Shown piece after piece: positions 7,877-52,556 of a stretch of DNA of 64,000 bases. The DNA lies in NCBI GenBank assembly GCA_021811315.1, contig JAJZPF010000010.1, positions 3,109-67,108 of the forward strand. The letters run 5' to 3'. How positions within the stretch are numbered: position 1 is the first letter of the stretch; the number at the start of each line of letters is the position of its first letter. A program made the position numbers and the translations under genes. The notes under the pieces are model-generated. The model saw only the letters and a program-made list of their open reading frames with translations. It was not told where the DNA came from and did no database searches. Source of the stretch: a bacterium (GTDB taxonomy: Bacteria; Elusimicrobiota; Elusimicrobia; Elusimicrobiales; UBA9959).

Positions 7877-8030
7877 GCGCGGTTGCCTTTTGACGAGGGA
7901 GGGTCTTGCCGGAAGGCCTGCATAGCATTGTACAAAAACAGGAGAAAAACGTGTATAAATAAACAACCGTCTTTAACTGGGGCCCGACTGGAGCTCCACA
8001 AAAAGACGGCTGTCCGCTGCCTGTAAACTT

Positions 8031-12405: not shown

Positions 12406-12432
12406 CGATCTCTGCTTCCCTTCCCCGTTCGC

Positions 12433-12467
12433 CGACTCCCGACTCCCGATTCTCGACTTTCGATTTC
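12433..12467. repeat. Heptamer array: 5 tandem units of CGAYYYY (CGACTCC CGACTCC CGATTCT CGACTTT CGATTTC)
   Basis: Read directly; lies between the batD stop (12469) and the batE start (12405). Confidence 0.85.
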
Positions 12468-12468
12468 C

Positions 12469-14307
12469 CTATCTGAGTTCTTTTTCAAGCAGCTCTAAAA
12501 GAAGGGAATATTTTTTGGCCAGGTCCGAAGCCCCTTCCGAGCCCGCGGCCTCCGGCGAGAAATGGCGCAGCTCCAGGGCCGCCCAGAGCTCGCAGATCTC
12601 TTCGAGCGAGCGGTCGGTGGCGGCCGGGAAGCGGCTCTTGACCAGCCCCGCCGCCTTCCTTATGGTCAGGGCGCTCACTTTCACCCCGCATTTGTCGGAG
12701 AGATAGTTCATGAACGAATCGTAAAGCACGGAGACGGCCTCGTTGGGCTTGTTCGTTTTTATCAGCGCCTCGGCTTCGTCTATGTCGCGGGAGGCTTCGC
12801 TGCGGGCCTTGCGGAACCTGAAGAGGAGCGGGTTGGCCAGCTTGAAGCGGTTCATCCTGGCCAGCCAGAAGCAGAGGAGCAGCAGCACGACCGGGAAGGC
12901 GTGCGTCCAGTAAGGCAGGGCCAGTACCGAGGCGGCGAGGAAAGGCAGGGCGTCCGCGCCCTGCTTCTCGCTGACATAGCGGATGTCCGAGCCGGAGGCC
13001 GTGACCGGAGCGCCGCCGCTGCCGGTGTTGAAGTTTACGCTCTTGGCCGCCTGGCCGCCCTTTTCCACCTGCAGGGTGACCGGGTTGGTCTGGAGCTCGC
13101 GGTAAGCGCCGGAGCGCGGCTCGAAGAAGGAGAATTTTATCGGCGGGACGGTCTTCTTCCCCTCGTTGCGGGGGACGAGGATATAGGTGAAGGTCTTCTT
13201 TCCGCTGATCAGGTCCCCCTCCTTTTTCACGTCGAGGGAGCTCATGGTGTCGAAGACTTTGAAGTCCGGCAGGTCGGGGAATTTAGGGGCGGAGACGGCC
13301 TTCAGGTTGCCGCTGCCGGTGATGGTTATTGAAAAATTAACCGCCTCCCCGGCGCGGGCTTCGGGGCGGTCGGTCACCGCGGCGATGGTATAGTTCCCCA
13401 CGGCGCCGCTGAAGTCGGGCGGGGCGCCGGCGGGCAGCGGCTTTATATCGATCGACAGGGGCTCGGTGGAAAATTCCCTGCTCTGTCCCTGCTGCCCGCT
13501 TATGGCCATGAACTTCTGGAAGAAGTTCGGGTCGAACGGGTCTATCGCCTCCTCGGAGGGGACCTGGGCGATGACGGTGGCGGACCTGATCTCGGCGGGG
13601 CCGGGGTTCAGGGCGAAGAGGGCGGCCTTGATCTCGCTATAGGCGTAGCGCACGCCGCCGATATCCGTTTCCCCGTTGCGCACCGGGGGCAGGTCTTCCG
13701 AGATCAGGTTCTTGAAAGCCGGCGGCACGTACTGCGGGTTGGAGCTGAGCGGCACCGAGGTGTAGAACTTTATGCTGATATTGATCTGCTCGCCGGGGTA
13801 GGCCGTTTTTTTGTCCGTTTCGGCCTTGAGGAAGATCTGCTCGCCCCTGCCGGCGGTTTTGCCCCGGGCCTGCCGCTGCTGCCTGGAGGGCTGCTGCGGG
13901 CGCTGCTGGGCCGAGGGCTGTTTGGCCTTGGTCACCGTGACCTGCATCTCGGTGGTCGCCGCGTTCTCCCTGCCGTTGGAGACCGTGATGGAAGGGATGG
14001 TCTGCAGCCCCAGGAAACGGGGCGAGAGGATGTAGGTGAAAGAGACGGAGGTGGTGATCTTCCCGTTTATTATGGAGATGCTCTGGCTGCGCCCGGAGGA
14101 GTAGACGTTGAAGCTCTGCATGTTCGGGAGCTTCGGTTCCGGCACGCTGGCCGAATCGCCGGAGACGGTGACGGTAAGATAGAGGTTGCCGCTGATCTCC
14201 ACCGAGTCGCGGTCCGTCGAGGCCGTGACCGAGAGCAGGGCCGACGCCGGGGCGGCGAGCAGCAGCGCCAGGGCGCAGGCGGCAAAAGCGGAGGCGGATC
14301 TTCTCAC
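12469..14307 (-). CDS. batD: BatD-like protein (oxygen-tolerance family)
   Basis: Signal peptide, repeated beta-rich regions, late TM segment, position in the Bat operon; GTG start overlapping the batB/C stop (GTGA). Confidence 0.8.
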   Translation of the reverse strand: MRRSASAFAACALALLLAAPASALLSVTASTDRDSVEISGNLYLTVTVSGDSASVPEPKLPNMQSFNVYSSGRSQSISIINGKITTSVSFTYILSPRFLGLQTIPSITVSNGRENAATTEMQVTVTKAKQPSAQQRPQQPSRQQRQARGKTAGRGEQIFLKAETDKKTAYPGEQINISIKFYTSVPLSSNPQYVPPAFKNLISEDLPPVRNGETDIGGVRYAYSEIKAALFALNPGPAEIRSATVIAQVPSEEAIDPFDPNFFQKFMAISGQQGQSREFSTEPLSIDIKPLPAGAPPDFSGAVGNYTIAAVTDRPEARAGEAVNFSITITGSGNLKAVSAPKFPDLPDFKVFDTMSSLDVKKEGDLISGKKTFTYILVPRNEGKKTVPPIKFSFFEPRSGAYRELQTNPVTLQVEKGGQAAKSVNFNTGSGGAPVTASGSDIRYVSEKQGADALPFLAASVLALPYWTHAFPVVLLLLCFWLARMNRFKLANPLLFRFRKARSEASRDIDEAEALIKTNKPNEAVSVLYDSFMNYLSDKCGVKVSALTIRKAAGLVKSRFPAATDRSLEEICELWAALELRHFSPEAAGSEGASDLAKKYSLLLELLEKELR

Positions 14308-16070
14308 CAGTCCTCCAGGCGGTCCTGCGGCGGCGGCTTGCCTTTCTGCATGGCGGCCTGCTTCATGGCTTCCGGGTCCCGGGCCGCGGCTTTTTCTTTT
14401 TCTTTCATCATCTCGAGTATCTGGCGGCTCCGCTCTTTGGCTTCCGCCTTTTTCTTCTCCTGCTCTTTCTGCTTTTCCTTCTCCTGGTTCTCTTTATCCC
14501 CGCCGGACTTGTCCTCTTTCTTGTCCTGGTCGCCCGGCTTCTTTTTGTCCTGGTCTTTCTTGTCCTGGTCTTTCTTGTCCTCGTTCTTCTTGTCCTTCTG
14601 ATTCTCGTTCTTCTTCTGCTGCTCCAGGGCCTTCTGGAGGTTGAACTTGGCGTTCTCGTCCTTCGGGTCGAAAGAGAGGGCTTTGCGGTAGCCGGCTATG
14701 GCCCCGGCCAGGTCCCCGCTTTTAAAAAGCGCGTTGCCGCGGTTGTAATAGGCCCTGGCGGCCAACTTCGGCGAAGCCGCGGCCTGGTCGAAGAACTCCC
14801 CCGCCTTGGCGTAGTCCTCCTGCTTGTAGTAGGCGTCGCCGATATTGAAATTAAGGCGCTTGTCCGCCGGGGCTTTCTGCATCGCGCGGGAATAATATTC
14901 CACGGCGGCCTGCCAGTCCTTCTTCTTATAGGCGGAGGCGCCTTTGCGGGCGTCGGCGCCGGGGCCGGCGGCCTGCAGGGAGGAGGCGGCGGCCAGCAGC
15001 AGGAGCGCGGCCGCGCCGCGTTTAAAGCGCGGCAGCCTGGCCGAGAGCTTTTTAAAGTCCGGCGGCGTGAACCTGAAGCCTTTCTCCATCACCATCAATT
15101 CTATCAAAAGCAGGAGCAGCGCCATAGCCAGCGGCCACTGGTAGCGGTTCTTGAAGCTGGCGCGGCCTTTGCCCCGGCTCTTCTCCAGGTCCAGGGCGCC
15201 GACGGCCGAGCGCATGGCCTCGGCGGCCGAATCCGGGTCGGTGTAGCGCAGGTAGGCCGCCCCGGTCCGGCTGGCTATTTTCATCAGCGCGGCTTCGTCC
15301 ATCCTGCTCACCACGGTCTTGCCGGACTTGTCCTTTTTGTACTCCAGGGTGTTGCCGATGGAGTCCGTCATGGGGACGAGGTCGCCGTCAGGGCTGCCTA
15401 TGCCGATGGTGAAGATCTTCAGGTTCTGCTCTGTCGCCGCTTTAAGGGAGGTATCCAGCGCGGAGGAGTGGTCCTCGCCGTCCGTTATCAGGACCATCAC
15501 CTTCTGCCCCCCGTAGCGCGAGAGCATGCCGAGCACGGTCTCTATGGCCTCGGAAAAATCGGTGCCCTGCGAGGGGAGCATGCCCGGCTTAAGGCCCGAG
15601 GCGAAATAGCTGATGGCGTCCTGGTCGGTGGTAAGCGGGCACTGGATGTAAGCCTCGCCGGCGAAAGCCACCACGCCTATGCGGTAGTCGGAGAATTTCT
15701 GGGCTATGGCCCCGAGCAGGAGGCGGGCGTTGGAAAGCCTGTCCGGCTTCAGGTCCCGGGCGCCCATGGAAAGCGAGGTGTCAACCGCTATCACCACGTT
15801 GCCTTTCAGGTCGGTGACCGGGGAAAGCTCCACGCCCCACTGCGGCCCGGCGGCGGCCAGCGCCAGAAGGCCGAGGGCGGCGAAATAAAGCAGGCCGCGC
15901 AGGCGCCTGCGGGCCGCCTCCGGCCCGGAAACGAGTTTGTCAAAAGCGGGGCCTAACAGGCCGCGCGCCGCCTCCAGCCGGCGCTCTTCCGCCCTGAAGC
16001 GGAAAAATACCAGCGCGGCGAATGCCGCGGCCAGCCAGGCAAGAGTTAAAGGATATCTGAATAACTCCAT
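14304..16070 (-). CDS. batB: BatB-BatC fusion: N-terminal TM, VWA domain, TM, TPR repeats, K/D/E/Q-rich tail
   Basis: MIDAS motif VDTSLSM; TPR YYNRGNALFKSGDLAGAIAGYRKAL; low-complexity KDKKNEDKKDQDKKDQDKKK. Confidence 0.8.
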   Translation of the reverse strand: MELFRYPLTLAWLAAAFAALVFFRFRAEERRLEAARGLLGPAFDKLVSGPEAARRRLRGLLYFAALGLLALAAAGPQWGVELSPVTDLKGNVVIAVDTSLSMGARDLKPDRLSNARLLLGAIAQKFSDYRIGVVAFAGEAYIQCPLTTDQDAISYFASGLKPGMLPSQGTDFSEAIETVLGMLSRYGGQKVMVLITDGEDHSSALDTSLKAATEQNLKIFTIGIGSPDGDLVPMTDSIGNTLEYKKDKSGKTVVSRMDEAALMKIASRTGAAYLRYTDPDSAAEAMRSAVGALDLEKSRGKGRASFKNRYQWPLAMALLLLLIELMVMEKGFRFTPPDFKKLSARLPRFKRGAAALLLLAAASSLQAAGPGADARKGASAYKKKDWQAAVEYYSRAMQKAPADKRLNFNIGDAYYKQEDYAKAGEFFDQAAASPKLAARAYYNRGNALFKSGDLAGAIAGYRKALSFDPKDENAKFNLQKALEQQKKNENQKDKKNEDKKDQDKKDQDKKKPGDQDKKEDKSGGDKENQEKEKQKEQEKKKAEAKERSRQILEMMKEKEKAAARDPEAMKQAAMQKGKPPPQDRLEDW

Positions 16071-16089
16071 ATAAAATTAATCTTTTCTC

Positions 16090-16152
16090 CGAATTCCCGA
16101 TCTTCGACTCCCGACCCCCGATCCTCGATTCTCGACTCCCGGCTCTCGATCC
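16090..16152. repeat. Heptamer array: about 9 units of CGAYYYY
   Basis: cgaattc c cgatctt cgactcc cgacccc cgatcct cgattct cgactcc cggctct cgatcc; lies between the batA stop (16155) and the batB start (16070). Confidence 0.85.
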
Positions 16153-16154
16153 TT

Positions 16155-17138
16155 TTACGGCACGGTCCTAAAGTAGGTTCTTTCCAAGATAAAAAGTAAG
16201 GCTAAAAGGGCGAGGGCCGGGGCGAGGAAATACAGGTAGAGGTCCGCGTAGTTGGTGTAGGTCTTCGCCTCGAATTTGGTTTTTTCCAGGGAGTCGATCT
16301 TGCCGTAGATCTTTTCCAGGTCCTGGGCGCTCTTGGCGCGGTAGAACTCCCCGCTGGTGAGGCCGGCTATCTCGCGCAGCGTGGGTTCGTCCAGGTCCTC
16401 GTCGATATAGATCACGGGCTGAGTCGGGTCCCCGGTCGAGATCTGGGCCCTGCCTTTTCCCGCCGTGCCGATGGTATATATTTTTATGTCGTAGGCCGCC
16501 GCGGTCTTTGCCGCCAGGGCGAGGTCCGTCACCAGCCCGACGTTGGAGCGCCCGTCGGTCAGCAGCACTATGACTTTGCTTTTGGCCTTGCTCTCCTTAA
16601 GGTGGTTTACCGCGGTGACTATGGCGTCGCCTATCGCCGTGCCGTCGGCCCTGGTCATGTTCAGGTAGGCCGCGTCCAGCATCTCGAGCACCGATTGGTA
16701 ATCCAGCGTGAGCGGGCAGGTAAGCAGGGCCGTGCCGCCGAAAACCGTGACGCCGATGCGGTCGTTCTTGCGCTTCTTCACGAAGTCCGCGGCGGCCTTC
16801 TTGGCGGCTTCGAGGCGGTTCGGGGAAAAATCCTCGGCGGCCATGCTGTAGGAGGTGTCCAGTACCAGCATTATGTCTATGCCCTCCGCGGGCGGAACTT
16901 CCCCCCTGCTGGCTTTCTGCGGGCGGGCCAGCGCGAAAATCAGGAGCGTTATGGCCAGCACCCTGCCCCAGAAAGGAACTATGGCGAACAGGCGCGTCCG
17001 CGCCGTCCCGAGCGCCGGGAGGACCGCGGGCACGCCGGCGGAATTAAGGCGCCTGGCCGATTGCGACCGCGCGACGCCCGCCAGGACCCCGAGCAGGGGC
17101 ATAAGCAGGAGGATCCACGGGTGCTTGAAGAGGTTCAT
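16155..17138 (-). CDS. batA: BatA-like VWA domain membrane protein
   Basis: N-terminal MNLFKHPWILLLMPLL, MIDAS motif LDTSYSM, C-terminal TM; ATGA overlap with the upstream gene. Confidence 0.8.
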   Translation of the reverse strand: MNLFKHPWILLLMPLLGVLAGVARSQSARRLNSAGVPAVLPALGTARTRLFAIVPFWGRVLAITLLIFALARPQKASRGEVPPAEGIDIMLVLDTSYSMAAEDFSPNRLEAAKKAAADFVKKRKNDRIGVTVFGGTALLTCPLTLDYQSVLEMLDAAYLNMTRADGTAIGDAIVTAVNHLKESKAKSKVIVLLTDGRSNVGLVTDLALAAKTAAAYDIKIYTIGTAGKGRAQISTGDPTQPVIYIDEDLDEPTLREIAGLTSGEFYRAKSAQDLEKIYGKIDSLEKTKFEAKTYTNYADLYLYFLAPALALLALLFILERTYFRTVP

Positions 17139-18100
17139 GGTTTGCCTCCCGCCTGCTTCAGGGCGGCCGCGGCGGCGGCCGCCGCGAGAGTCCGCGCGTT
17201 CTCCGCCGCGCGGTTGAATTCCATCAGGAGCTCTTCGAGGGCGCGGGAGTCGTCCGCGGCGTCGGCGGGCTTGAGGCGGGCGAATTTCACGAGGTCCGAC
17301 TTCTGCAGCAGTTCCCTGGTCCTGAGCGCGGTCTTTATGTCGGCCCCGGTCTTCTTAAGCTCGCGGCCCAATACCGGGGTGGTCATCTGGGCGGCGTCGA
17401 TAGAAAATTCCTCGGCCAGGTAGAAGCGGAGCACGGAGGCGAGGCCGGTATAGAATTCTTTCAGCTTGCCGGCGGCGGCCAGCGGGGATTTCTCGAGCCC
17501 GTCCAGGCGGTCGCGGGCCCGCTGGTAGGGGGAGCGGGCGTCCAGCCAGGCGGCGCCCGGGGTTCCCGCCGCCGCCCGCCCGCGGCGGCGGTAGAAATAG
17601 AACGCCGCGGCGGCGGCGAGCGCGAGCGCCAGGAGCCAGAGCCAGGGGACGTAGCGGAAGGGCGGGTAGATGTCGCGGATGCCTTCCCCCTCCTTGGTCT
17701 TGAAGAGGGGCAGAACCTTGACGGTAAAGGAGGAACTCGTCACTTCCGCGCCGGGCGGGGCGCCGGCGCCCCCGAGGCGCCAGGAGAGGGCGGGGAAGGT
17801 GCTTATTCCGAGGGCGAAGGCCTTCGCCTCGACCTCGAAGGTCTGGGTCTTGCGGCCGTCCTTTTTCGCTTCGCCTGACCTGGTAAAGGAGACCAGTTCG
17901 AACCCCGAGCCCTCCGGGGTGGAGGTATCCGGCCTAAGGGAATAGTTTTCCGGGAGCGAAGCCTCGACCTTGAACTTGAAAGAGTCGGCCAGCTTTATCA
18001 CGCCCGACGGAGGAGTTACGGTCAGGGACACGGCCTCCTGCGCCGCGGCGGGCGCGGCGGCGAGGAAAGCGGACAGGAGCAGGGTGGTCGTTCGCCTCAT
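17135..18100 (-). CDS. Bat-operon membrane protein (BatD-like N-terminal region plus a DUF4381-like TM/cytoplasmic region)
   Basis: Signal peptide, then IRDIYPPFRYVPWLWLLALALAAAAAFYFYRRR; occupies the conserved slot between DUF58 and batA. Confidence 0.6.
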   Translation of the reverse strand: MRRTTTLLLSAFLAAAPAAAQEAVSLTVTPPSGVIKLADSFKFKVEASLPENYSLRPDTSTPEGSGFELVSFTRSGEAKKDGRKTQTFEVEAKAFALGISTFPALSWRLGGAGAPPGAEVTSSSFTVKVLPLFKTKEGEGIRDIYPPFRYVPWLWLLALALAAAAAFYFYRRRGRAAAGTPGAAWLDARSPYQRARDRLDGLEKSPLAAAGKLKEFYTGLASVLRFYLAEEFSIDAAQMTTPVLGRELKKTGADIKTALRTRELLQKSDLVKFARLKPADAADDSRALEELLMEFNRAAENARTLAAAAAAAALKQAGGKP

Positions 18101-18984: not shown

Positions 18985-18994
18985 AGAAAAATAA

Positions 18995-19076
18995 GAGTCG
19001 AGGGTCAAGAGTCAGGGGTCGGGGGTCAGGAGTTCTGTGATTCTAGATCCTTGACTCCCGACTCTCGACTCCCGAC
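18995..19076. repeat. Inverted heptamer arrays: purine-rich (GAGTCGA GGGTCAA GAGTCAG GGGTCGG GGGTCAG) facing pyrimidine-rich (TTGACTC CCGACTC TCGACTC CCGAC); potential long imperfect hairpin
   Basis: Read directly; lies between the moxR stop (19082) and the DUF58 start (18984). Confidence 0.8.
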
Positions 19077-19081
19077 AGTTC

Positions 19082-30340: not shown

Positions 30341-30379
30341 TGAATTTTTTGAGTATTCTTCCCTATCTTCTTTAATCAG

Positions 30380-30494
30380 GCGAGCGTCAGCGAGCTTCTT
30401 GAATAAATCTTATCCCCTAATCCCCTCTTATAGCGGGCTTCTTGAATAATCCCCATCCCCCTCTTAAGCGGGCGACAAGCGAGCGTCAGCGAGC
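30380..30494. repeat. Repeat cluster downstream of the tRNA: exact 16-mer GCGAGCGTCAGCGAGC (30380-30395, 30479-30494) bracketing two units of about 43 nt that start GCTTCTTGAATAA (30394, 30437)
   Basis: Read directly. Confidence 0.75.
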
Positions 30495-30574
30495 ACTCCC
30501 CATAAGGAAGATTCCCATCGCCCACGCATAATGTGGCTATGGGAAAATAATGAAACCGCACTAACACTGAAAAA

Positions 30575-30644
30575 GCGGGCGATGGGAATCGAACCCACGT
30601 CTAATGCTTGGGAAGCACTCGTACTACCATTGTACGACGCCCGC
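30575..30644 (-). tRNA. tRNA-Gly, anticodon CCC
   Basis: Minus strand reads GCGGGCG TC GTAC AATGGTA GTAC G AGTGC TTCCCAA GCATT AGAC GTGGG TTCGATT CCCAT CGCCCGC and folds as a cloverleaf; CCA is not encoded. Confidence 0.9.
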
Positions 30645-33630: not shown

Positions 33631-35226
33631 TTAATTGCCGGCCTGCGGCTCCGCCATCAGCGCGCCGGCCCGTTTTTCAAGTTCGCGTCTCAGCAGTTCG
33701 CGCTTCAGCACCTTCTGCAGGGTGTTCTTGGGCAGGGCCGTCACGACTTCCACGTCGCGGGGCCGCTTATAGGGGTCCAGGTGCGCCCGGATATATTTCA
33801 TCACTTCTGATTTTTCCAGCGGCAGCCCGGGCCTGGCGACGCAGAAGCATTTCATCGTCTCGTTGCCGGTTCCGTCCGGGACGCCTATCACGGCGTTCTC
33901 GAGCACCTTCGGATGCGCGTTTATCACCTGCTCGATCTGGGCCGGGAAGACCTTGAGGCCTTTCACTATCACCATGTCCTTCTTGCGGTCGCGGATGAAC
34001 AGGAAGCCGTCGGTGTCGAGCACGCCTATGTCGCCGGTCCTGAGCCAGCCGTCCCGGGTGAACAGGTCCTTCGTGGCGCTGTCGTTATCGTGGTAGCCGC
34101 GGGTTATGTTGGGGCCCTGCACGCAGATCTCCCCCTCTTCTCCGTGCTTAAGGTGGTTCCCGTTCTCGTCGACTATTTTAATAGTTACGCCGCGGATGGC
34201 TTTGCCTACCGAGCCGCGCTTGTTCGATTTCGGCGGGACGATGGTGACCACCGGGCTGGTTTCCGTAAGGCCGTAGCCCTCCAGGATCTGCAGGCCGAAA
34301 GCTTTGTGGAAGTGCTGGGAGATCGCGTGGTTGAGCGGCGCGGCGCCGGAAAGGCAGAGGCGGACCCGGCGCAGGCTCCAGAACCGGAGGAAGAATTTCT
34401 TCAGGCCTTTGGCTTCCTTTGCCAGCACGCCGAAGATCTGCGGGACGGCGATCAGCACGCTTACGCCTTCGCGGCCCATGGCCTGCAGCCAGAGCTTGGG
34501 CGGGGTGATGTTCTTTACGATGAGCGTCTTGGAGCCGAGCAGCATCGGCGTTATCACGTTGCCGGTCCACGAGAAAGTGTGGAACATCGGCAGGAGCGCC
34601 ATGAAGACGTCTTTCTTCGTCGGCTCGAGCGTGTGCATGGCGGCCCTGGAGTTCTCTATCATGTTGTGGTGGGTCAGCAGCACGCCTTTCGGGTGGCCGG
34701 TAGTGCCGGAGGTGTAAAGTATGGTGGCCACGTCGTGCTCGTGCGCGGCCGTCCTGCCGGCCTGCGGGTCGTGCCGGGCGCGCTCGAGGGCGGGCCAGAA
34801 CTCCGTGACCCCTTCCAGGCCGCAGGGATCCGCGGAGATTATGAAGAGGCCGGGGAGTTTCTTTTTTACCGAGGCGTAGGTTTTTACGAATTCTTTTTCG
34901 GTCACCACGCCCTTGCAGGCGGAATTCTCGAGGATGAAGCAGATCTCCTCGGCTTTGGAGACCAGGAAATTTACGGGCACGGCCACCGCGCCGATCTTTA
35001 CCAGGCCGAAATAGGCTATTACGAATTCCGGCGAGTTGCGGAGCACTATGGCCGCGCGGTCCCCTTTGCGCAGGCCCAGCTGCCGGAACAGGCCGGCGGC
35101 GCGGTCAACGGCGGAAAGGACTTCGGCCCAGGAGAGGCGGCTGTCCCCGGTCACGTAGGCCGAATCTTCCGGGTATTTGCCGGCGGTCTTCGCGAGGCAG
35201 GAATAGAGGTCTTTGGGTTCGCTCAT
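33631..35226 (-). CDS. fadD: Long-chain acyl-CoA ligase (AMP-binding family)
   Basis: ILYTSGTTGHPKGVLLTHHN, GYGLTETS, TGDIG..D.DGFLFIRDRKKD. Confidence 0.85.
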   Translation of the reverse strand: MSEPKDLYSCLAKTAGKYPEDSAYVTGDSRLSWAEVLSAVDRAAGLFRQLGLRKGDRAAIVLRNSPEFVIAYFGLVKIGAVAVPVNFLVSKAEEICFILENSACKGVVTEKEFVKTYASVKKKLPGLFIISADPCGLEGVTEFWPALERARHDPQAGRTAAHEHDVATILYTSGTTGHPKGVLLTHHNMIENSRAAMHTLEPTKKDVFMALLPMFHTFSWTGNVITPMLLGSKTLIVKNITPPKLWLQAMGREGVSVLIAVPQIFGVLAKEAKGLKKFFLRFWSLRRVRLCLSGAAPLNHAISQHFHKAFGLQILEGYGLTETSPVVTIVPPKSNKRGSVGKAIRGVTIKIVDENGNHLKHGEEGEICVQGPNITRGYHDNDSATKDLFTRDGWLRTGDIGVLDTDGFLFIRDRKKDMVIVKGLKVFPAQIEQVINAHPKVLENAVIGVPDGTGNETMKCFCVARPGLPLEKSEVMKYIRAHLDPYKRPRDVEVVTALPKNTLQKVLKRELLRRELEKRAGALMAEPQAGN

Positions 35227-35278: not shown

Positions 35279-35307
35279 GTTGTCCTGGCTTATGTTGTCC
35301 TGGCTTA
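35279..35307. repeat. Tandem duplication of a 14-mer GTTGTCCTGGCTTA (35279-35292, 35294-35307); the second copy contains the permease stop codon
   Basis: Read directly. Confidence 0.8.
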
Positions 35308-38989: not shown

Positions 38990-39011
38990 GATTCCCGATT
39001 CTCAATTCCCG
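38990..39011. repeat. Short heptamer array (GATTCCC GATTCTC AATTCCC)
   Basis: Read directly, between the peptidase stop (39013) and the methyltransferase start (38978). Confidence 0.6.
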
Positions 39012-39012
39012 C

Positions 39013-45140: not shown

Positions 45141-46133
45141 TTATGGTTTAAAGCCGGGCTCGCCGCGCCAGCATTTCGAGCCGCGCCTTTCCCCCGTCCT
45201 GAATTCCGGCGGCTCGGCCGAGCGGCACTTGTCGAAGACTTCCGGGCATCTCGGCGCGAAGGGGCAGCCGGGCAGGTCCTCGTCGAAACTCGGGGGCAGG
45301 CCTTCTATCGTCTTGAGCGGTTCCCCGGGGTTGTCGCTCATTTTCGGCAGCGAATTCAGCAGGGCGCGGCTGTAGGGATGGGAGGGGCTTTTGAAGAAAT
45401 GTTCCGCCGGCCCGCGCTCCACCACGCGTCCGGCGTAAAAGACCAGGACGTAGTCGGCGCGCTGGGCCACGATGCCGAGGTTATGGGTGATGAGGGCCAG
45501 CGCCAGGCCGCTTTCTTTTTTCAGCGCGTCCACCAGGTCGAGTATCTGGGCCTGCACGGTGACGTCGAGCGCCGTGGTAGGCTCGTCGGCGATCACCAGG
45601 TCCGGGCCGCAGGCCAGCGCCATGGCTATCATGACGCGCTGGCGCATGCCGCCGGAAAAATTATGCGGGTACTGGGCGAGCCGGTTCCCGGCGTCGGTGA
45701 TCCCGACCTTTTCCAGCAGTTTCTCGCAGGCCGGCAGCGCCTCGGAGTAAGAAAGGCCTTTGTGCTCCATAAGCGGCTCCGCCAGCTGCAGGCCGATGGT
45801 GAGCACGGGATTGAGGGAGGTCATCGGCTCCTGGAAGACCATAGAGATCCCGGCGCCGCGCACGCCGCGCAGCTCTTCTTCCGGGAGCGCGGCCAGGTCC
45901 TTTCCCTTGTAGAGCACGCTGCCGGAGTCGATCTTCGCGCCGGGAGGCAGCAGGCGCACTACGGAAAGCGCGCCTATGGTCTTGCCGGAGCCGGATTCCC
46001 CGACTATAGCCAGCGTTTCCCCGGGGTAGATCCGGTAGCTTACGCCGCGCAGGATCCTGGTGGGCGTCCCGTCGCGCGCGACGGAGACGGAAAGGTCCCG
46101 GACTTCGAGCAGGGGCGCGGTCCTGTCTGTCAT
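45141..46133 (-). CDS. Peptide-type ABC transporter ATP-binding protein (OppD/DppD-like)
   Basis: [27 protein letters not shown]. Confidence 0.9.
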
Positions 46134-46837
46134 CTTAAGGTTTCCTCGCCGTTAATTTTAAGGCTTTTAAACCGGGCGTAGGCGCCCTGCGGGTCGCCGC
46201 CGGCGAAGCCGCCAAGGAAGAATTTCTGGGACGGCGCGTCTTCCGCCGAAGAGGCGTCCAGGCGGAGGACGGGGATGAAGGTCTTCCTGTTCATGGCGTA
46301 GGAAACCGTGAAATAGTTCCCGTCGCGCGCGAAGCGCAGCACTTTCAGCTTCTTCGGAAGCGGGAAGGGCTTTCCCCCGGGCAGGCAGAAGAGCGTGAGG
46401 CTGTCGTCCGCGGGCCTGGGGCCGTTCTGGCGCTGCACCAGCACCTTAAGCAGCGCGGAGGCGTTCCCGACGGAAGGCCGCGCCGCGTCGCCGCCCATCC
46501 AGATGCCGTAGGAGAAGCGCTTCATCTGGCCGGGCGGTATTTTAAAATCGGCCTCCAGGTCCGCCTGCCACTTCGTCCCGGAAAGCTCGCGCGAAAGTAT
46601 GAGGCCGGGGGCGTAGCCGTCGGAGGGCTCGTCGCGGCTGTCGTCCTGCCGGGCGGTAAGATGATAGTAAAGGCCGTCCCCCCTGACCTCGTGGGAGCCG
46701 TATTCGTCGTTCCAGCCCGTCCAGGTTTCCCAGTCGTCGGCGGCAAAAGCCCCTTTCTTGAATATCGCGGGGCTGCAGCCAGCGCTAAACATCGCGGCGG
46801 CCGCGATCGCCGCAAGAAATAAAAGATCTTTTCTCAT
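46130..46837 (-). CDS. Hypothetical lipoprotein (beta-rich, 235 aa)
   Basis: Signal peptide with lipobox-like MFSAGC; 4-nt overlaps on both sides. Confidence 0.55.
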
Positions 46838-47337
46838 CCTAATTCATTTCCCCCGCTCCCGGTCCGCGATCTTCGATTCTCGACTCCCGATTCCCGATTT
46901 GCTTTGCTGTCCAGCCACAGGGTCACCGGGCCGTCGTTGATTATTTCCACTTCCATGTCCGCGGCGAAAACGCCGGTCTTGACCGGCACGCCCTTGCCCC
47001 GCAGCGCTTTTACGAAATATTCATAGAGCCTGCTGGCTTCCGGGGGCCTGGCGGCCGCGGTGAAATCCGGGCGGCGGCCCTTCGAGGCGTCGCCGTAAAG
47101 AGTGAACTGCGAGACCACCAGCGCTTCGCCCTTGACGTCCAGCAGCGAGTGGTCGAATTTGCCGGAGGAGTTGGAGAAGACCCGCAGGTTGGCCGTCTTT
47201 TCGGCCAGAAGCTCGGCGTCCGCCTCAGCGTCGCCCTCCCCCACCGCGAGCAGCACCACGAGGCCGCGGCCTATGGTTTCATGCGCGCCGGCGGTTTTTA
47301 CACCGCCGCGTTTCACCCGTTGTATAAGCGCCCTCAT
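46834..47337 (-). CDS. dtd: D-aminoacyl-tRNA deacylase with a 23-aa C-terminal tail encoded by the heptamer-repeat region
   Basis: [27 protein letters not shown]; the tail [23 protein letters not shown] follows the usual end of the family. Confidence 0.85.
46867..46901. repeat. Heptamer array: 5 units (CGATCTT CGATTCT CGACTCC CGATTCC CGATTTG)
   Basis: Read directly; 30 nt upstream of the lipoprotein ATG (46837) and inside the dtd tail. Confidence 0.8.
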
Positions 47338-49429: not shown

Positions 49430-51203
49430 AATCATTATAGCCACCGACTGCGGCAGCACTACCACGAAAGCCATCCTCATAGAAAAGAAAGGCGATACCT
49501 ACCGCCAGACTTTCCGCGGCGAGGCCCCGACCACGGTCGAGGCCCCGTTCGAGGACGTCACCAAGGGCGTGCTGAACTCGATCACGGAGGTCGAGGAACT
49601 CTCCGGCCGCAAAATACTCGACGGCGAAAGGATCATAACTCCCAACAGCGGCAACGTGGGAGCGGACATCTACGTCTCCACCTCCTCGGCCGGCGGCGGC
49701 CTGCAGATGATGGTCGCCGGGGCCGTGAAAGCGATGACCGGCGAGTCCGCGCAGCGCTGCGCCCTGGGCGCCGGCGCCATCGTGATGGACGTGCTGGCCT
49801 CCAACGACGGCCGCGCCGACCATGAGAAGATAGAGCGCATCCGCCAGCTGCGCCCGGACATGATGCTCCTCTCCGGCGGCACCGACGGCGGAACCATCAC
49901 CCACGTGGTCGAGCTCGCCCAGTTCCTGAAGGCCGCCGACCCCAAGCCCCGCCTCGGCGCCTCCTACAAGCTGCCGGTGATCTACGCCGGCAACAACAAG
50001 GCCCACGCGCAGATCAAGGAAATACTCGGCGACCGCACGGCGCTGATCATCACCGAGAACCTCCGCCCCACGCTGGAGAAAGAGAATTTGATGCCGGCCC
50101 GCCACAAGATCCACGACATCTTCCTCGAGCACGTGATGCAGCAGGCCCCCGGCTACCCGCGCCTGATGAAGATGGTGGGCGCCCCGATAATGCCCACTCC
50201 GGCCGCGGTAGGCACTATGACGGAAAAGTTCGCCAAGGCCAATAAATTCAACGTCCTGGCCGTCGATATCGGCGGCGCCACTACCGACGTGTTCTCGGTC
50301 TTCTCGGAAGTTTTCAACCGCACCGTGAGCGCCAACCTGGGCATGAGCTACTCCATCTCCAACGTGATGGCCGAGGCCGGCCTGGCCAATATCCTGCGCT
50401 GGCTCCCTTTCGACATGGACGAGCAGGACCTCAGGAACCGCCTGAAGAACAAGATGATAAGGCCCACCACCATCCCCCAGACGGTAGAGGACCTGCAGAT
50501 CGAGCACGCGGTCGCGCGCGAGGCTCTCCGCCTGGCTTTCGACCAGCATAAGGCGCTGGCCGTGGGGCTGAAGGGCGTCCAGCAGGAGCGCTCCATCTCC
50601 GACGCTTTCGACCAGACCGCCTCCGGGGCCAGCCTCATCAACGTGATGCGGCTGGATTACGTGATAGGCTCAGGCGGCATCCTCGCGCATTCCCCCCGCC
50701 GCACCCAGTCCATGCTTATGATGATAGACGCCTACCAGCCCGAGGGCATCACCCGCATGGCCGTGGACTCCATCTTCATGATGCCGCACCTGGGCGTGCT
50801 GGCGCAGATCAGCGAGAAAGCCGCGCTGGACGTGTTCTACCACGACTGCCTGGTGAGGCTGGGCACGTGCCTCGCGCCTAAGGGCCTGGCCAAGGAAGGC
50901 CAGCTTATCATGGAGTGGGAAGTGACCGGTTCCGACGGCAGCCGCCAGGCCGGCGAGCTCCGCTTCGGCGATATCCTCCACGTCCCCTTCGCGGCCCCCA
51001 AGGCCAGGCTGGTGGCCAAGCCGGTCAAAGGCTTCGACATGGGCGCCGGCTCCGGCAGCCGCGTAGAGGCGGACATAGAAGGCGGCGTGGTCGGCCTGGT
51101 GCTGGACGGGCGCGGCAGGCCCTTCAACATTTCCAAGGAGCCGGCAAAGCGCCGCGACGACCTGAACAAGTGGTACAAAGCGATGGGGATGTACCCGGTC
51201 TAA
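49410..51203 (+). CDS. GlmL/MutL-like ASKHA-fold ATPase (glutamate mutase L family-like, 597 aa)
   Basis: IIATDCGSTTTKAILIEK and VLAVDIGGATTDVFSVF phosphate-binding motifs typical of the GlmL family. Confidence 0.75.
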   Translation: MSKKDLEIIIATDCGSTTTKAILIEKKGDTYRQTFRGEAPTTVEAPFEDVTKGVLNSITEVEELSGRKILDGERIITPNSGNVGADIYVSTSSAGGGLQMMVAGAVKAMTGESAQRCALGAGAIVMDVLASNDGRADHEKIERIRQLRPDMMLLSGGTDGGTITHVVELAQFLKAADPKPRLGASYKLPVIYAGNNKAHAQIKEILGDRTALIITENLRPTLEKENLMPARHKIHDIFLEHVMQQAPGYPRLMKMVGAPIMPTPAAVGTMTEKFAKANKFNVLAVDIGGATTDVFSVFSEVFNRTVSANLGMSYSISNVMAEAGLANILRWLPFDMDEQDLRNRLKNKMIRPTTIPQTVEDLQIEHAVAREALRLAFDQHKALAVGLKGVQQERSISDAFDQTASGASLINVMRLDYVIGSGGILAHSPRRTQSMLMMIDAYQPEGITRMAVDSIFMMPHLGVLAQISEKAALDVFYHDCLVRLGTCLAPKGLAKEGQLIMEWEVTGSDGSRQAGELRFGDILHVPFAAPKARLVAKPVKGFDMGAGSGSRVEADIEGGVVGLVLDGRGRPFNISKEPAKRRDDLNKWYKAMGMYPV

Positions 51204-51206
51204 AAA

Positions 51207-51280
51207 CGATCGAGAATCGGGGATCGGGAATTCAGGAGCAGATTCCCCCGATTCCCGACTCGCGATCCCTGATTCATCGG
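51207..51280. repeat. Inverted heptamer arrays: purine-rich ATCGAGA ATCGGGG ATCGGGA facing pyrimidine-rich CGATTCC CGACTCG CGATCCC TGATTCA
   Basis: Read directly, between the GlmL-like stop (51203) and the next start (51319). Confidence 0.75.
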
Positions 51281-51318: not shown

Positions 51319-52443
51319 ATGGCGCACGCATATACACCCGGACTTAAAGTAATGCCCTGCACGCTGCTGAAGAAGAAGAGGCTCCTGCCTATTCCCGGAA
51401 AGGTGCTTGCCGAAATGGGCCGGCAGGTGGATTCCCTGGACGTGGTGGCGCAGACCGAACTGCCGGGGAAAGTCTTCTCCGTCAACGTGGCCAACCGGCT
51501 GGCCGTCGGCCCCGACGAAATAAAGAATTTCATGACCAAGGGCGAAGGCGACGCCGTGAAGAAAGGCGAGACCATCGCCGAGAACAAGCCCTTCCTGAAA
51601 TGGTTCAAGACCTCCGTCGAGTCCCCCGTGGACGGCGTCGTGGAGGCCGTCTCCCTTATCACCGGCCAGGTGCTGCTGCGCGAGCCGCCGAAAGTCCTCC
51701 CGATAAAAGCCTATGTGAAAGGCAAAGTGGTGGAGGTCACGCCCAATTTCGGCGTCGTTATCGAGACCGAGGGCACCTTCATCCAGGGCATCTTCGGCGT
51801 GGGCGGCGAGACCAACGGCGAGATCTGCATGGCCGTCGCGAGCCCCGACGAGGACCTGACGACCGAAGATATCAAGGAGAACCACAGGGGCAAGATAGTC
51901 ATCGGCGGGAAACACGCCAGCCTTTCCACCATAAAGCGCGCCATCGAACTGGGCGTTAACGCCATCGTGGTGGGCGGGATACACGACCGCGACCTGCGCC
52001 AGCTGCTGGGCTACGATATCGGCGTGGCGGTGACCGGCCATGAACAGCTGGGGATCACCGTGATCGTTACCGAGGGGTTCGGAATGATCCCGATGGCGGA
52101 ATATACTTTCAAGCTGCTCGCCTCCCGCAACGGCGAGAGCGCCTCGGTGTCGGGCGCGACGCAGATCCGCGCCGGGGTGATGCGCCCCGAGATCATAGTC
52201 CCGGGCTTTCCCAAGAACGTGACCGAGTCCAAGAAGGACCAGGGCCGCGGCTGGATAGAGCCCGGCGACCCGATACGGATAATCCGCGAGCCGCATTTCG
52301 GCGTGATAGGCACGGTCAGATCCCTGCCCCCCGAGCTTACGGTGATCGGCAGCGAGAGCCACGCCCGGGTGCTGGAAGTGACCCTGGACAGCGGCGAAGT
52401 CATCGTCGTCCCGCGCGCGAACATCGAAGTGCTTGAAAAATAA
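51319..52443 (+). CDS. Hypothetical 374-aa protein with a lipoyl/hybrid-barrel-like segment and KOW-like beta segments
   Basis: Strong ribosome-binding site TAAGGAGA; VKKGETIAENKPFLKWFKTSVESPVDGVVEAV resembles a biotinyl/lipoyl-type hammerhead; no family assigned. Confidence 0.6.
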   Translation: MAHAYTPGLKVMPCTLLKKKRLLPIPGKVLAEMGRQVDSLDVVAQTELPGKVFSVNVANRLAVGPDEIKNFMTKGEGDAVKKGETIAENKPFLKWFKTSVESPVDGVVEAVSLITGQVLLREPPKVLPIKAYVKGKVVEVTPNFGVVIETEGTFIQGIFGVGGETNGEICMAVASPDEDLTTEDIKENHRGKIVIGGKHASLSTIKRAIELGVNAIVVGGIHDRDLRQLLGYDIGVAVTGHEQLGITVIVTEGFGMIPMAEYTFKLLASRNGESASVSGATQIRAGVMRPEIIVPGFPKNVTESKKDQGRGWIEPGDPIRIIREPHFGVIGTVRSLPPELTVIGSESHARVLEVTLDSGEVIVVPRANIEVLEK

Positions 52444-52461: not shown

Positions 52462-52556
52462 GATCGGTAATCAGAGCCAGGGTCGAAAAAAACCGCGCTG
52501 ATTGCCGATCTCTGATTCCCGAATACCGGATCCCCGGTCCTCTGCTTTCGACTCCG
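52462..52556. repeat. Degenerate heptamer region with an inverted pair GATCGGTAATCAGAG (52462-52476) / CTCTGATTCCCGAAT (52510-52524)
   Basis: 12 of 15 positions complementary; downstream 7-nt periodicity CCGATCT CTGATTC CCGAATA CCGGATC. Confidence 0.6.

Follow-up and report, generated by a model that had tools for sequence, protein, structure and literature searches.

G-rich heptamer repeats anchored to stop codons in an uncultured Elusimicrobiota bacterium

The heptanucleotide tandem repeats known as STRR are dispersed in the non-coding DNA of the cyanobacterium Calothrix PCC 7601, and the REP/BIME elements of enterobacteria are transcribed hairpins near stop codons within operons, where they stabilise upstream mRNA; REPs consist of one conserved palindrome of ~35 nt per genome, mobilised by RAYT transposases. 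Heptanucleotides are the commonest of the long simple-sequence repeats (SSRs; 5-11-nt units) in prokaryotes, with polymerase slippage as the proposed origin, according to later summaries of the survey of Mrazek (2007) (PMC4679880, PMC4692102). In marine Beggiatoaceae, TAACTGA direct repeats are intergenic, present in 2-6 copies and located within operons, and binding by S1, Csp or CsrA-like proteins has been proposed (MacGregor 2015, PMC4679880). G-rich heptameric repeats have been described by Rehm et al. (2015, PMC4692102) as (GGGAATC)n or heterogeneous (GGGANTN)n in Xanthomonas and as GGGGA(C/T)T in Nostoc. These are 89-93% intergenic, lie at a mean of 28 nt from the 5' open reading frame (ORF) versus 160 nt from the next one, and are found mostly between aligned ORFs and in few cases between divergent ones, with 70-75 convergent inverted pairs per genome. 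They vary extensively in length and sequence between two Xanthomonas species, form G-quadruplexes in vitro given four G3 tracts, and have no link to particular gene functions, their functional role being yet to be elucidated (PMC4692102). Here we describe arrays of this kind at seven sites in a 64,000-nt stretch of an Elusimicrobiota genome (contig JAJZPF010000010.1, positions 3,109 to 67,108; hereafter the window), five of them beginning within a few nucleotides of a stop codon.

Tandem 7-nt units that read CGAYYYY on the plus strand (RRRRTCG in mRNA) occur at all seven sites reported in the initial annotation, far above chance. A scan for chains of at least three units, each matching CGAYYYY at six or more of its seven positions, found eight chains in the window, whereas first-order Markov shuffles averaged 0.72 and never exceeded 3, and a four-unit pattern with up to 2 mismatches matched 14 times where 0.00 matches were expected. 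Tandem Repeats Finder (TRF) confined period 7 to the same sites, and a background set of 782 kb, drawn from a metagenome scan with a MoxR query (mostly other phyla, ~60% identity), held ~10 weak chains, close to chance. On the G-rich strand the units include GGGAGTC, GGGAATC and GGGGATC, in arrays of 3-9 units. The commonest window unit is CGACTCC, equivalent to GGGAGTC; the Xanthomonas (GGGAATC)n has (CGATTCC)n as its complement, and perfect GGGAATC is found at four of the seven sites (38990, 46867, the pyrimidine arm at 51207 and the relic units at 52462). The arrays had initially been taken to fall outside any described repeat class, but Rehm et al. report G-rich heptamers that are placed alike and likewise occur as convergent inverted pairs, and the window arrays are new members of this G-rich heptamer class (GGGAATC/GGGAGTC/GGGGATC), here in an uncultured Elusimicrobiota. 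The window belongs to an 80-kb contig of an ENA metagenome assembly, and its assignment agrees with the names of BatB and Dtd homologues (70-95% identity), which are Elusimicrobia, Elusimicrobiota or Elusimicrobiales. An Rfam search of the window returned one tRNA only and no family at the arrays.

The closest positional tie of the arrays is to the stop codon upstream, and it is their G-rich strand that runs in the sense direction. All seven sites lie between co-oriented genes, six of them intergenic and one in the tail of an ORF, and none of the divergent spacers within the window carries an array; its remaining co-oriented spacers hold ordinary G+C-rich hairpins or promoters. The array, or the purine arm of an inverted pair, begins 1 nt after the stop codon of batD, 1 nt after that of batA, 5 nt after that of moxR, 0-1 nt after that of the M20 peptidase gene and 3 nt after that of the MutL-family gene, and the dtd array begins exactly at the usual protein end. 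At six sites the downstream start codon follows the repeat by 10-29 nt; at the 51204-51280 hairpin the gap is 38 nt. The placement 12-30 nt upstream of start codons that had been noted earlier is therefore roughly accurate as a number (10-29 nt for the four one-directional arrays), but the tight relation, at 0-5 nt, is to the stop. Nor are all seven sites the simple arrays first supposed. Four are one-directional arrays and fit that description, at 18995-19076 and 51207-51280 a purine array is followed by its complement in a clear inverted pair, and 52462-52556 is a degenerate hairpin with relic units. As RNA, the one-directional arrays are unstructured (z-scores of -0.85 to +0.77).

Three of the sites fall inside a minus-strand bat operon that encodes a HEAT protein, MoxR, a DUF58 protein, a hypothetical protein, BatA, BatB, BatD and a TPR protein (batE). 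Between moxR (stop codon 19082-19084) and the DUF58 gene (start 18984), the convergent inverted pair at 18985..19081 runs in mRNA order from a purine arm (19076-19046) to a pyrimidine arm (19028-18996), then UUAUUUUUCU and the AUG, with a fold of -43 kcal/mol (z -4.7). The spacer between batA (stop codon 16155-16157) and batB (start 16070) holds a one-directional minus-strand array of 8-9 heterogeneous units (16090..16153), unstructured as RNA (z +0.25). Five units occupy 12433..12467 on the same strand, 1 nt from the batD stop codon (12469-12471), with the TPR/batE start (12405) 27 nt away; they read GAAATCG, AAAGTCG, AGAATCG, GGAGTCG and GGAGTCG in mRNA order (z -0.85).

The four sites outside the bat operon follow an M20 peptidase gene, the end of dtd, a MutL-family (PF13941) gene and a gene for a 374-aa protein. 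A short minus-strand array of ~3 units, reading GCGGGAATTGAGAATCGGGAATC in mRNA, lies at 38990..39012 between the M20 peptidase gene (stop codon 39013-39015) and a methyltransferase gene (start 38978). On the plus strand, the convergent inverted pair at 51204..51280 follows the stop codon of the MutL-family gene (51201-51203) and folds at -35 kcal/mol (z -2.7); the next gene starts at 51319 with an AAGGAGA motif of its own. The last site, 52462..52556 (plus strand), lies between the stop codon of the 374-aa gene (52441-52443) and the start of a PMT-family gene (52562), a spacer of 118 nt, and combines a degenerate hairpin (52462-52512) with pyrimidine-rich relic units; it failed the chain criterion and folds at -35.9 kcal/mol (z -2.6).

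The minus-strand array of five units at 46867..46901, initially called intergenic, is actually inside the 3' end of the Dtd ORF (46834-47337) and is translated as a C-terminal extension. Dtd has 167 aa in the window versus 146-153 aa in most homologues, and its match to Pfam Tyr_Deacylase ends at residue 143. In the relative L216 (we use such handles for related loci where they have to be told apart), the dtd stop codon, TAG, lies within the first heptamer unit (GGA TAG TCG GGA ATC). The window and L214 have lost this stop, so that the array encodes a tail of 17-22 residues; in the window this tail runs into the next gene (46130-46837) with an ATGA overlap. The region compared is 46834-46902 (minus strand) in the window, 10437-10492 in L214 and 10420-10475 in L216. 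Dtd is thus a clear case of an array that absorbs a stop codon and lengthens a housekeeping enzyme by 17-22 residues. A coding repeat was rejected as a general description of the arrays, the Dtd tail being the sole translated one.

Orthologous loci obtained via BatB and Dtd homologues reveal how these arrays arose and change. In the more distant relatives L211, L212 and L213 (70-77% BatB identity) and in L126, the bat junctions are tight: batD and batE overlap, batA and batB range from overlapping to 10 nt apart, and moxR and the DUF58 gene are separated by 29-34 unstructured nucleotides, with no arrays in the ~86 kb of these four outgroup loci. The window arrays are therefore derived insertions into a tightly packed operon. 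They entered bat junctions that had been overlapping or very short, and even between close relatives arrays have since appeared, changed in size, been replaced and disappeared. At batD/batE, for example, the unit number is ~2 in L123, 5 in the window, 6 in L206 and ~9 in L209, and L207 has a 13-nt spacer with none. The batA/batB spacer of the window, 84 nt with its array, corresponds to 3 nt in L123 and 22 nt in L209, to a hairpin made from other heptamers (AAGGATG / CAGCCTT) in L207, and to a 226-nt unrelated inverted element in L206. Even in L122, which shares 98.2% DNA identity with the window, 13 of 54 differences fall within this 84-nt spacer (15.5% versus 1.3% elsewhere), and the array centre is swapped for unrelated sequence. 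Unit numbers thus differ at orthologous arrays and the array spacer is hypervariable, which supports the early suggestion of slippage-prone microsatellites. Ectopic conversion from another array is unsupported: the 22-nt segment that takes the place of the array centre in L122 was found nowhere else, either in the window or among related loci. An assembly artefact was ruled out because the same junction sequences recur in independent assemblies: L207 equals L208 and L214 equals L215 where they are shared, and L122 matches the window at the array ends.

Turnover extends to the sites outside the bat operon. L214 (88% DNA identity) retains the dtd array in degenerate form, has an unrelated 81-nt spacer in place of the array at the M20 peptidase/methyltransferase junction, and has no hairpin after the MutL-family gene, where it carries a 28-nt spacer with GGAGG; the more distant L216 retains that hairpin. 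At the 374-aa/PMT junction, the hairpin of L216 is similar to that of the window, and L214 has one of unrelated sequence, again with the purine arm first (-37.9 kcal/mol, z -5.8), followed by UUUAUUUUU. At the moxR/DUF58 junction, a stable hairpin with the purine arm first is found in all three array-bearing lineages sampled (the window, L207 and L209), built mainly from GGAGTCG, GGAATCG or AAAATCG/AAGATCG units depending on the lineage. Seven of its 24 predicted pairs have changed on both sides, a figure that rests on three sequences and on an alignment whose register within repeats is ambiguous.

Other observations were made at these loci. Purine-arm-first hairpins built from other periodic units occur in L207 (9880-10000), L206 (2055-2280 and 6678-6772) and L214 (4530-4597); units among relatives include AAGGATG/CAGCCTT, ACAGGAT-like and AAGGCAG-like sequences, and some of these hairpins occupy junctions that hold CGAYYYY arrays in the window. 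The array-bearing sub-clade seems prone to period-7 inverted arrays of several sequences. Three independent assemblies (ENA, Logan and JGI) of the relative with 83% BatB identity (L123 1-300, L124 1-270 and L125 1-270) all end 260-290 nt upstream of batB, inside batA, where something, perhaps a repeat or strain variation, interrupts assembly. Window positions 7967-8030, between the genes for a transaldolase-PGI fusion and pyruvate kinase, contain a hairpin, a T-run and TACAAT in a sequence kept in all relatives; in contrast to the fast-changing arrays, this is an ordinary terminator and promoter. In L206 (7222-10403) the transaldolase-PGI gene is called as an overlapping pair, through either a frameshift or a real split, where the window and most relatives encode a single fusion protein of ~1060 aa. 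Upstream of the M20 peptidase and OPT transporter genes of L216 are two G/C-rich, apparently structured copies of a ~200-nt element (16087-16406 and 17598-17808); a search of these against Rfam gave no family and a single chance match (E = 0.05).

The placement seen in the window recurs across phyla. Scanning one genome per species for four CGAYYYY units plus CGA gave at least 120 loci in Cyanobacteria, Verrucomicrobiota, Planctomycetota, Acidobacteriota, Xanthomonadales, Bacteroidota, Actinomycetota and another Elusimicrobia metagenome-assembled genome. The counts that follow are among the matches listed, and they depend on approximate gene calls: first, crude ORF calls placed 65 of 124 arrays inside genes, a number that fell to 26 once arrays were masked and ORFs of at least 150 aa were required; 59 arrays were usable as intergenic. 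Start-codon distances are less reliable in this set than stop-codon distances. Arrays reach at least 32 units at maximum. Their median distance is 9 nt to the 5' ORF versus 84 nt to the 3' ORF (42 versus 14 arrays, p = 2e-4), and just four of the 59 sit in divergent spacers. Among arrays no more than 30 nt from a stop codon, 39 are G-rich and 9 are C-rich in the sense strand (p = 1.5e-5); within 30 nt of a start codon the numbers are 8 and 9. Arrays between co-oriented genes divide into 15 sense and 17 antisense, 23 of the 59 lie between convergent genes, and inverted pairs are convergent in 18 cases versus divergent in 4 (p = 0.004). The window conforms to these rules, with arrays near the 5' ORF, G-rich in sense after stop codons, and convergent pairs.

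We favour, with somewhat better than even confidence, the reading that these are G-rich heptamer SSRs driven by slippage: stop-anchored, fast-changing and largely tolerated spacer repeats. Going by the pattern of variation, replication slippage would add or remove 7-nt units, point mutation would make the units heterogeneous, and inverted copying of an array on its 3' side would produce a hairpin whose purine arm precedes its pyrimidine arm. Arrays would mainly fill the part of the spacer that is free of signals for the next gene, and a likely side effect would be to uncouple formerly coupled cistrons. The hairpin forms, for their part, probably act as stabilisers or partial terminators within the mRNA and would affect its stability or read-through, in view of the persistent moxR/DUF58 hairpin with its compensatory changes, the U-rich tails and the new hairpin in L214. 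Orthologues of the array-adjacent genes are retained in relatives whose junctions are array-free and either overlap or span 3-13 nt. Judged by this gene content, the arrays are dispensable for the presence of the downstream genes, and they would not be required for their expression.

Several points weigh against this reading. Slippage alone leaves the post-stop strand bias and the excess of convergent pairs unexplained. The persistence of the moxR/DUF58 hairpin in every array-bearing lineage sampled, with different units and compensatory changes, and the hairpin of unrelated sequence at the 374-aa/PMT junction of L214 suggest that structure may be under selection, which would not be expected of purely neutral repeats. 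Our survey of the source genome covers the 64-kb window, and the G-rich mRNA sense of all four one-directional arrays is too small a sample (n = 4) to judge. One idea is that the post-stop strand bias comes from avoidance of C-rich Rho-loading sites. Going further, and in our view unlikely, the arrays may be selected elements that act just after stop codons, where only the G-rich orientation would be tolerated (for instance because C-rich untranslated RNA would load Rho, or because GGAG-rich RNA holds the terminating ribosome) and where inverted copying would be a general way to build, fast, new intercistronic hairpins that stabilise or attenuate the transcript. Selection of this kind would explain both the unrelated heptamer hairpins at the same junctions and the asymmetries across at least six phyla.

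A more limited form of selection would act on the inverted pairs as intra-operon RNA structures, giving REP-like protection from 3' exonucleases or partial termination and attenuation; a hairpin after moxR would thereby govern how much MoxR is made relative to the Bat proteins encoded downstream, and repeat expansion with inverted copying would be a fast route to it. We regard this as possible but on balance doubtful. Fold energies of -26 to -43 kcal/mol (z -2.5 to -5.8) make the hairpins stable, the convergent layout is favoured across phyla, and the moxR/DUF58 hairpin is followed by UUAUUUUUCU and that of L214 by UUUAUUUUU; the 51207 hairpin has no adjacent U-tract. Yet the hairpin between the MutL-family and 374-aa genes is cleanly missing in L214, the closer relative, the outgroup junctions are unstructured, promoter and terminator consensus scans did not call the repeat hairpins, and the co-variation of the moxR/DUF58 arms, besides its small and ambiguous alignment, could also stem from template-switch homogenisation. 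The initial annotation had looked instead to the downstream gene, with the arrays as Shine-Dalgarno (SD)-like standby sites, or as multi-GGA platforms for CsrA or another RNA-binding protein, that tune translation of the next cistron. A related possibility is that they hold the terminating ribosome for re-initiation. Such roles now seem improbable to us. GGA is abundant in the arrays, the one-directional ones are G-rich in mRNA and unstructured, the arrays replaced junctions that were probably reliant on translational coupling, and a similar proposal exists for the Beggiatoaceae TAACTGA heptamers (PMC4679880). Against this, the arrays are anchored to the stop and not the start, those next to start codons or between co-oriented genes show no strand bias, those between convergent genes have no downstream cistron, and orthologues function without arrays. 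CsrA targets carry GGA in hairpin loops or over the SD, whereas the one-directional arrays are unstructured and lie apart from any SD at a proper spacing. Before the batB start the nearest GGAG is at 16 nt, and the other array-adjacent starts checked (DUF58, batE and the gene after dtd) have neither GGAG nor an SD-like motif. Of 34 genes not adjacent to arrays (in L001 and L214), only 15 show an SD-like motif in the 22 nt before the start, mostly at 4-11 nt. The standby idea is unsupported because the nearest GGAG is too far from the start and under half of the genes have such a motif; this Elusimicrobiota lineage may rely heavily on SD-independent initiation. A tblastn search with E. coli CsrA gave no convincing match in the ~250 kb covered, which is uninformative.

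The arrays might alternatively work as DNA or RNA G-quadruplexes near gene ends, acting on transcription or translation, as proposed for the Xanthomonas (GGGAATC)n. The class does form quadruplexes in vitro when four G3 tracts are available, but no window array contains the motif with loops of at most 7 nt. With loops of up to 12 nt only 12418-12447, at batD/batE, qualifies (four G3 tracts; loops of 4, 11 and 2 nt), where the orthologous array of L206 reads GGGAATCGGGGATCGGGAGTCGGG. Many units have no G-tract at all (AGAATCG, AAGATCG), whole arms in L209 consist of AAAATCG/AAGATCG, and in the hairpins the G-rich arm is base-paired, so that we give this explanation little credence. Quadruplex formation is a property of perfect arrays and lies outside the search definition of Rehm et al.; its scarcity here weakens the quadruplex reading and not the class membership. 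Least credible of all is that the arrays are contingency loci in which a change of one 7-nt unit switches expression, for example by frameshifting the Dtd tail and its ATGA overlap. Unit number does vary between relatives, the array-encoded Dtd tail does overlap the next start codon, and heptanucleotide repeats control hmw expression in Haemophilus influenzae, by the account in PMC12721329. The neighbours, though, are housekeeping or bat-operon genes and not surface antigens, the units are heterogeneous, which lowers slippage rates, and the arrays follow stop codons instead of occupying promoters or ORF 5' ends. For the class as a whole, Rehm et al. drew the same negative conclusion (PMC4692102).

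With slippage-driven, largely tolerated spacer repeats as the preferred account, the findings overturn nothing in current understanding. They extend the class to Elusimicrobiota and, through the cross-phylum scan, to many other phyla with the same placement rules. The bat operon offers a natural before/after comparison between overlapping junctions and arrays or hairpins of 60-100 nt, and the post-stop strand bias and convergent preference, now quantified across phyla, give a handle on selection versus mutation.

The window contains other repeats as well. Beside its only tRNA gene are direct repeats of 19 nt and of 29 nt, each present twice, and a perfect inverted repeat of 14 nt (30377-30494 and 30574-30644). 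Two copies of a perfect 15-nt direct repeat, GTTGTCCTGGCTTAT, occupy 35279-35307, in the upstream spacer of the minus-strand gene at 33631-35226, and could be an operator-like site. Within the batB coding region, period-12 and period-15 repeats at 14447-14617 encode a lysine- and aspartate-rich linker, with similar repeats in L207 and L212.

Set beside the described systems, the window hairpins share with REP elements their position in intercistronic spacers close to stop codons, but their arms are tandem heptamers whose sequence differs by site and lineage, with no common palindrome. CRISPR arrays have repeats of 24-48 nt and unique spacers of about the same length, unlike the contiguous 7-nt units found here. 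CRISPR, REP/BIME and MITE were accordingly rejected, as there is neither a shared consensus nor any spacer, and the initial judgement that the arrays are neither REP/BIME-like nor CRISPR is borne out. With the long SSRs of Mrazek, as relayed in the later papers, and with STRR the arrays have in common dispersed non-coding 7-nt tandems, a sporadic phylogeny and a proposed slippage origin, although the former class, in those summaries, is defined by unit length only and STRR units differ in sequence from those of the window. The Beggiatoaceae TAACTGA repeats are likewise intergenic heptamers within operons, and attracted the same binding idea as was first put forward for our arrays. They lie a few nucleotides upstream of start codons, however, are A/T-rich and have inverted copies in 1 of 170 cases, whereas the window arrays are stop-anchored, G-rich and often inverted pairs.

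The closest match is to the repeats of Rehm et al., from which the window arrays differ in phylum, in having GGGAGTC as the commonest unit, in a higher apparent density (seven sites in 64 kb) and in more degenerate units, many of them A-rich, so that most window arrays have no canonical quadruplex motif. Their insertion into once-tight operon junctions is also demonstrable here. The two sets otherwise agree: at least two tandem, heterogeneous 7-nt units of the GGGxxTC type; a mostly intergenic position between co-oriented ORFs and, in the window, never between divergent ones; greater proximity to the 5' ORF, with the G-rich strand coding within 50 nt of the stop; convergent pairs, two of them clear and one degenerate, all with the G-rich arm 5'; and variation in length and sequence between close relatives.

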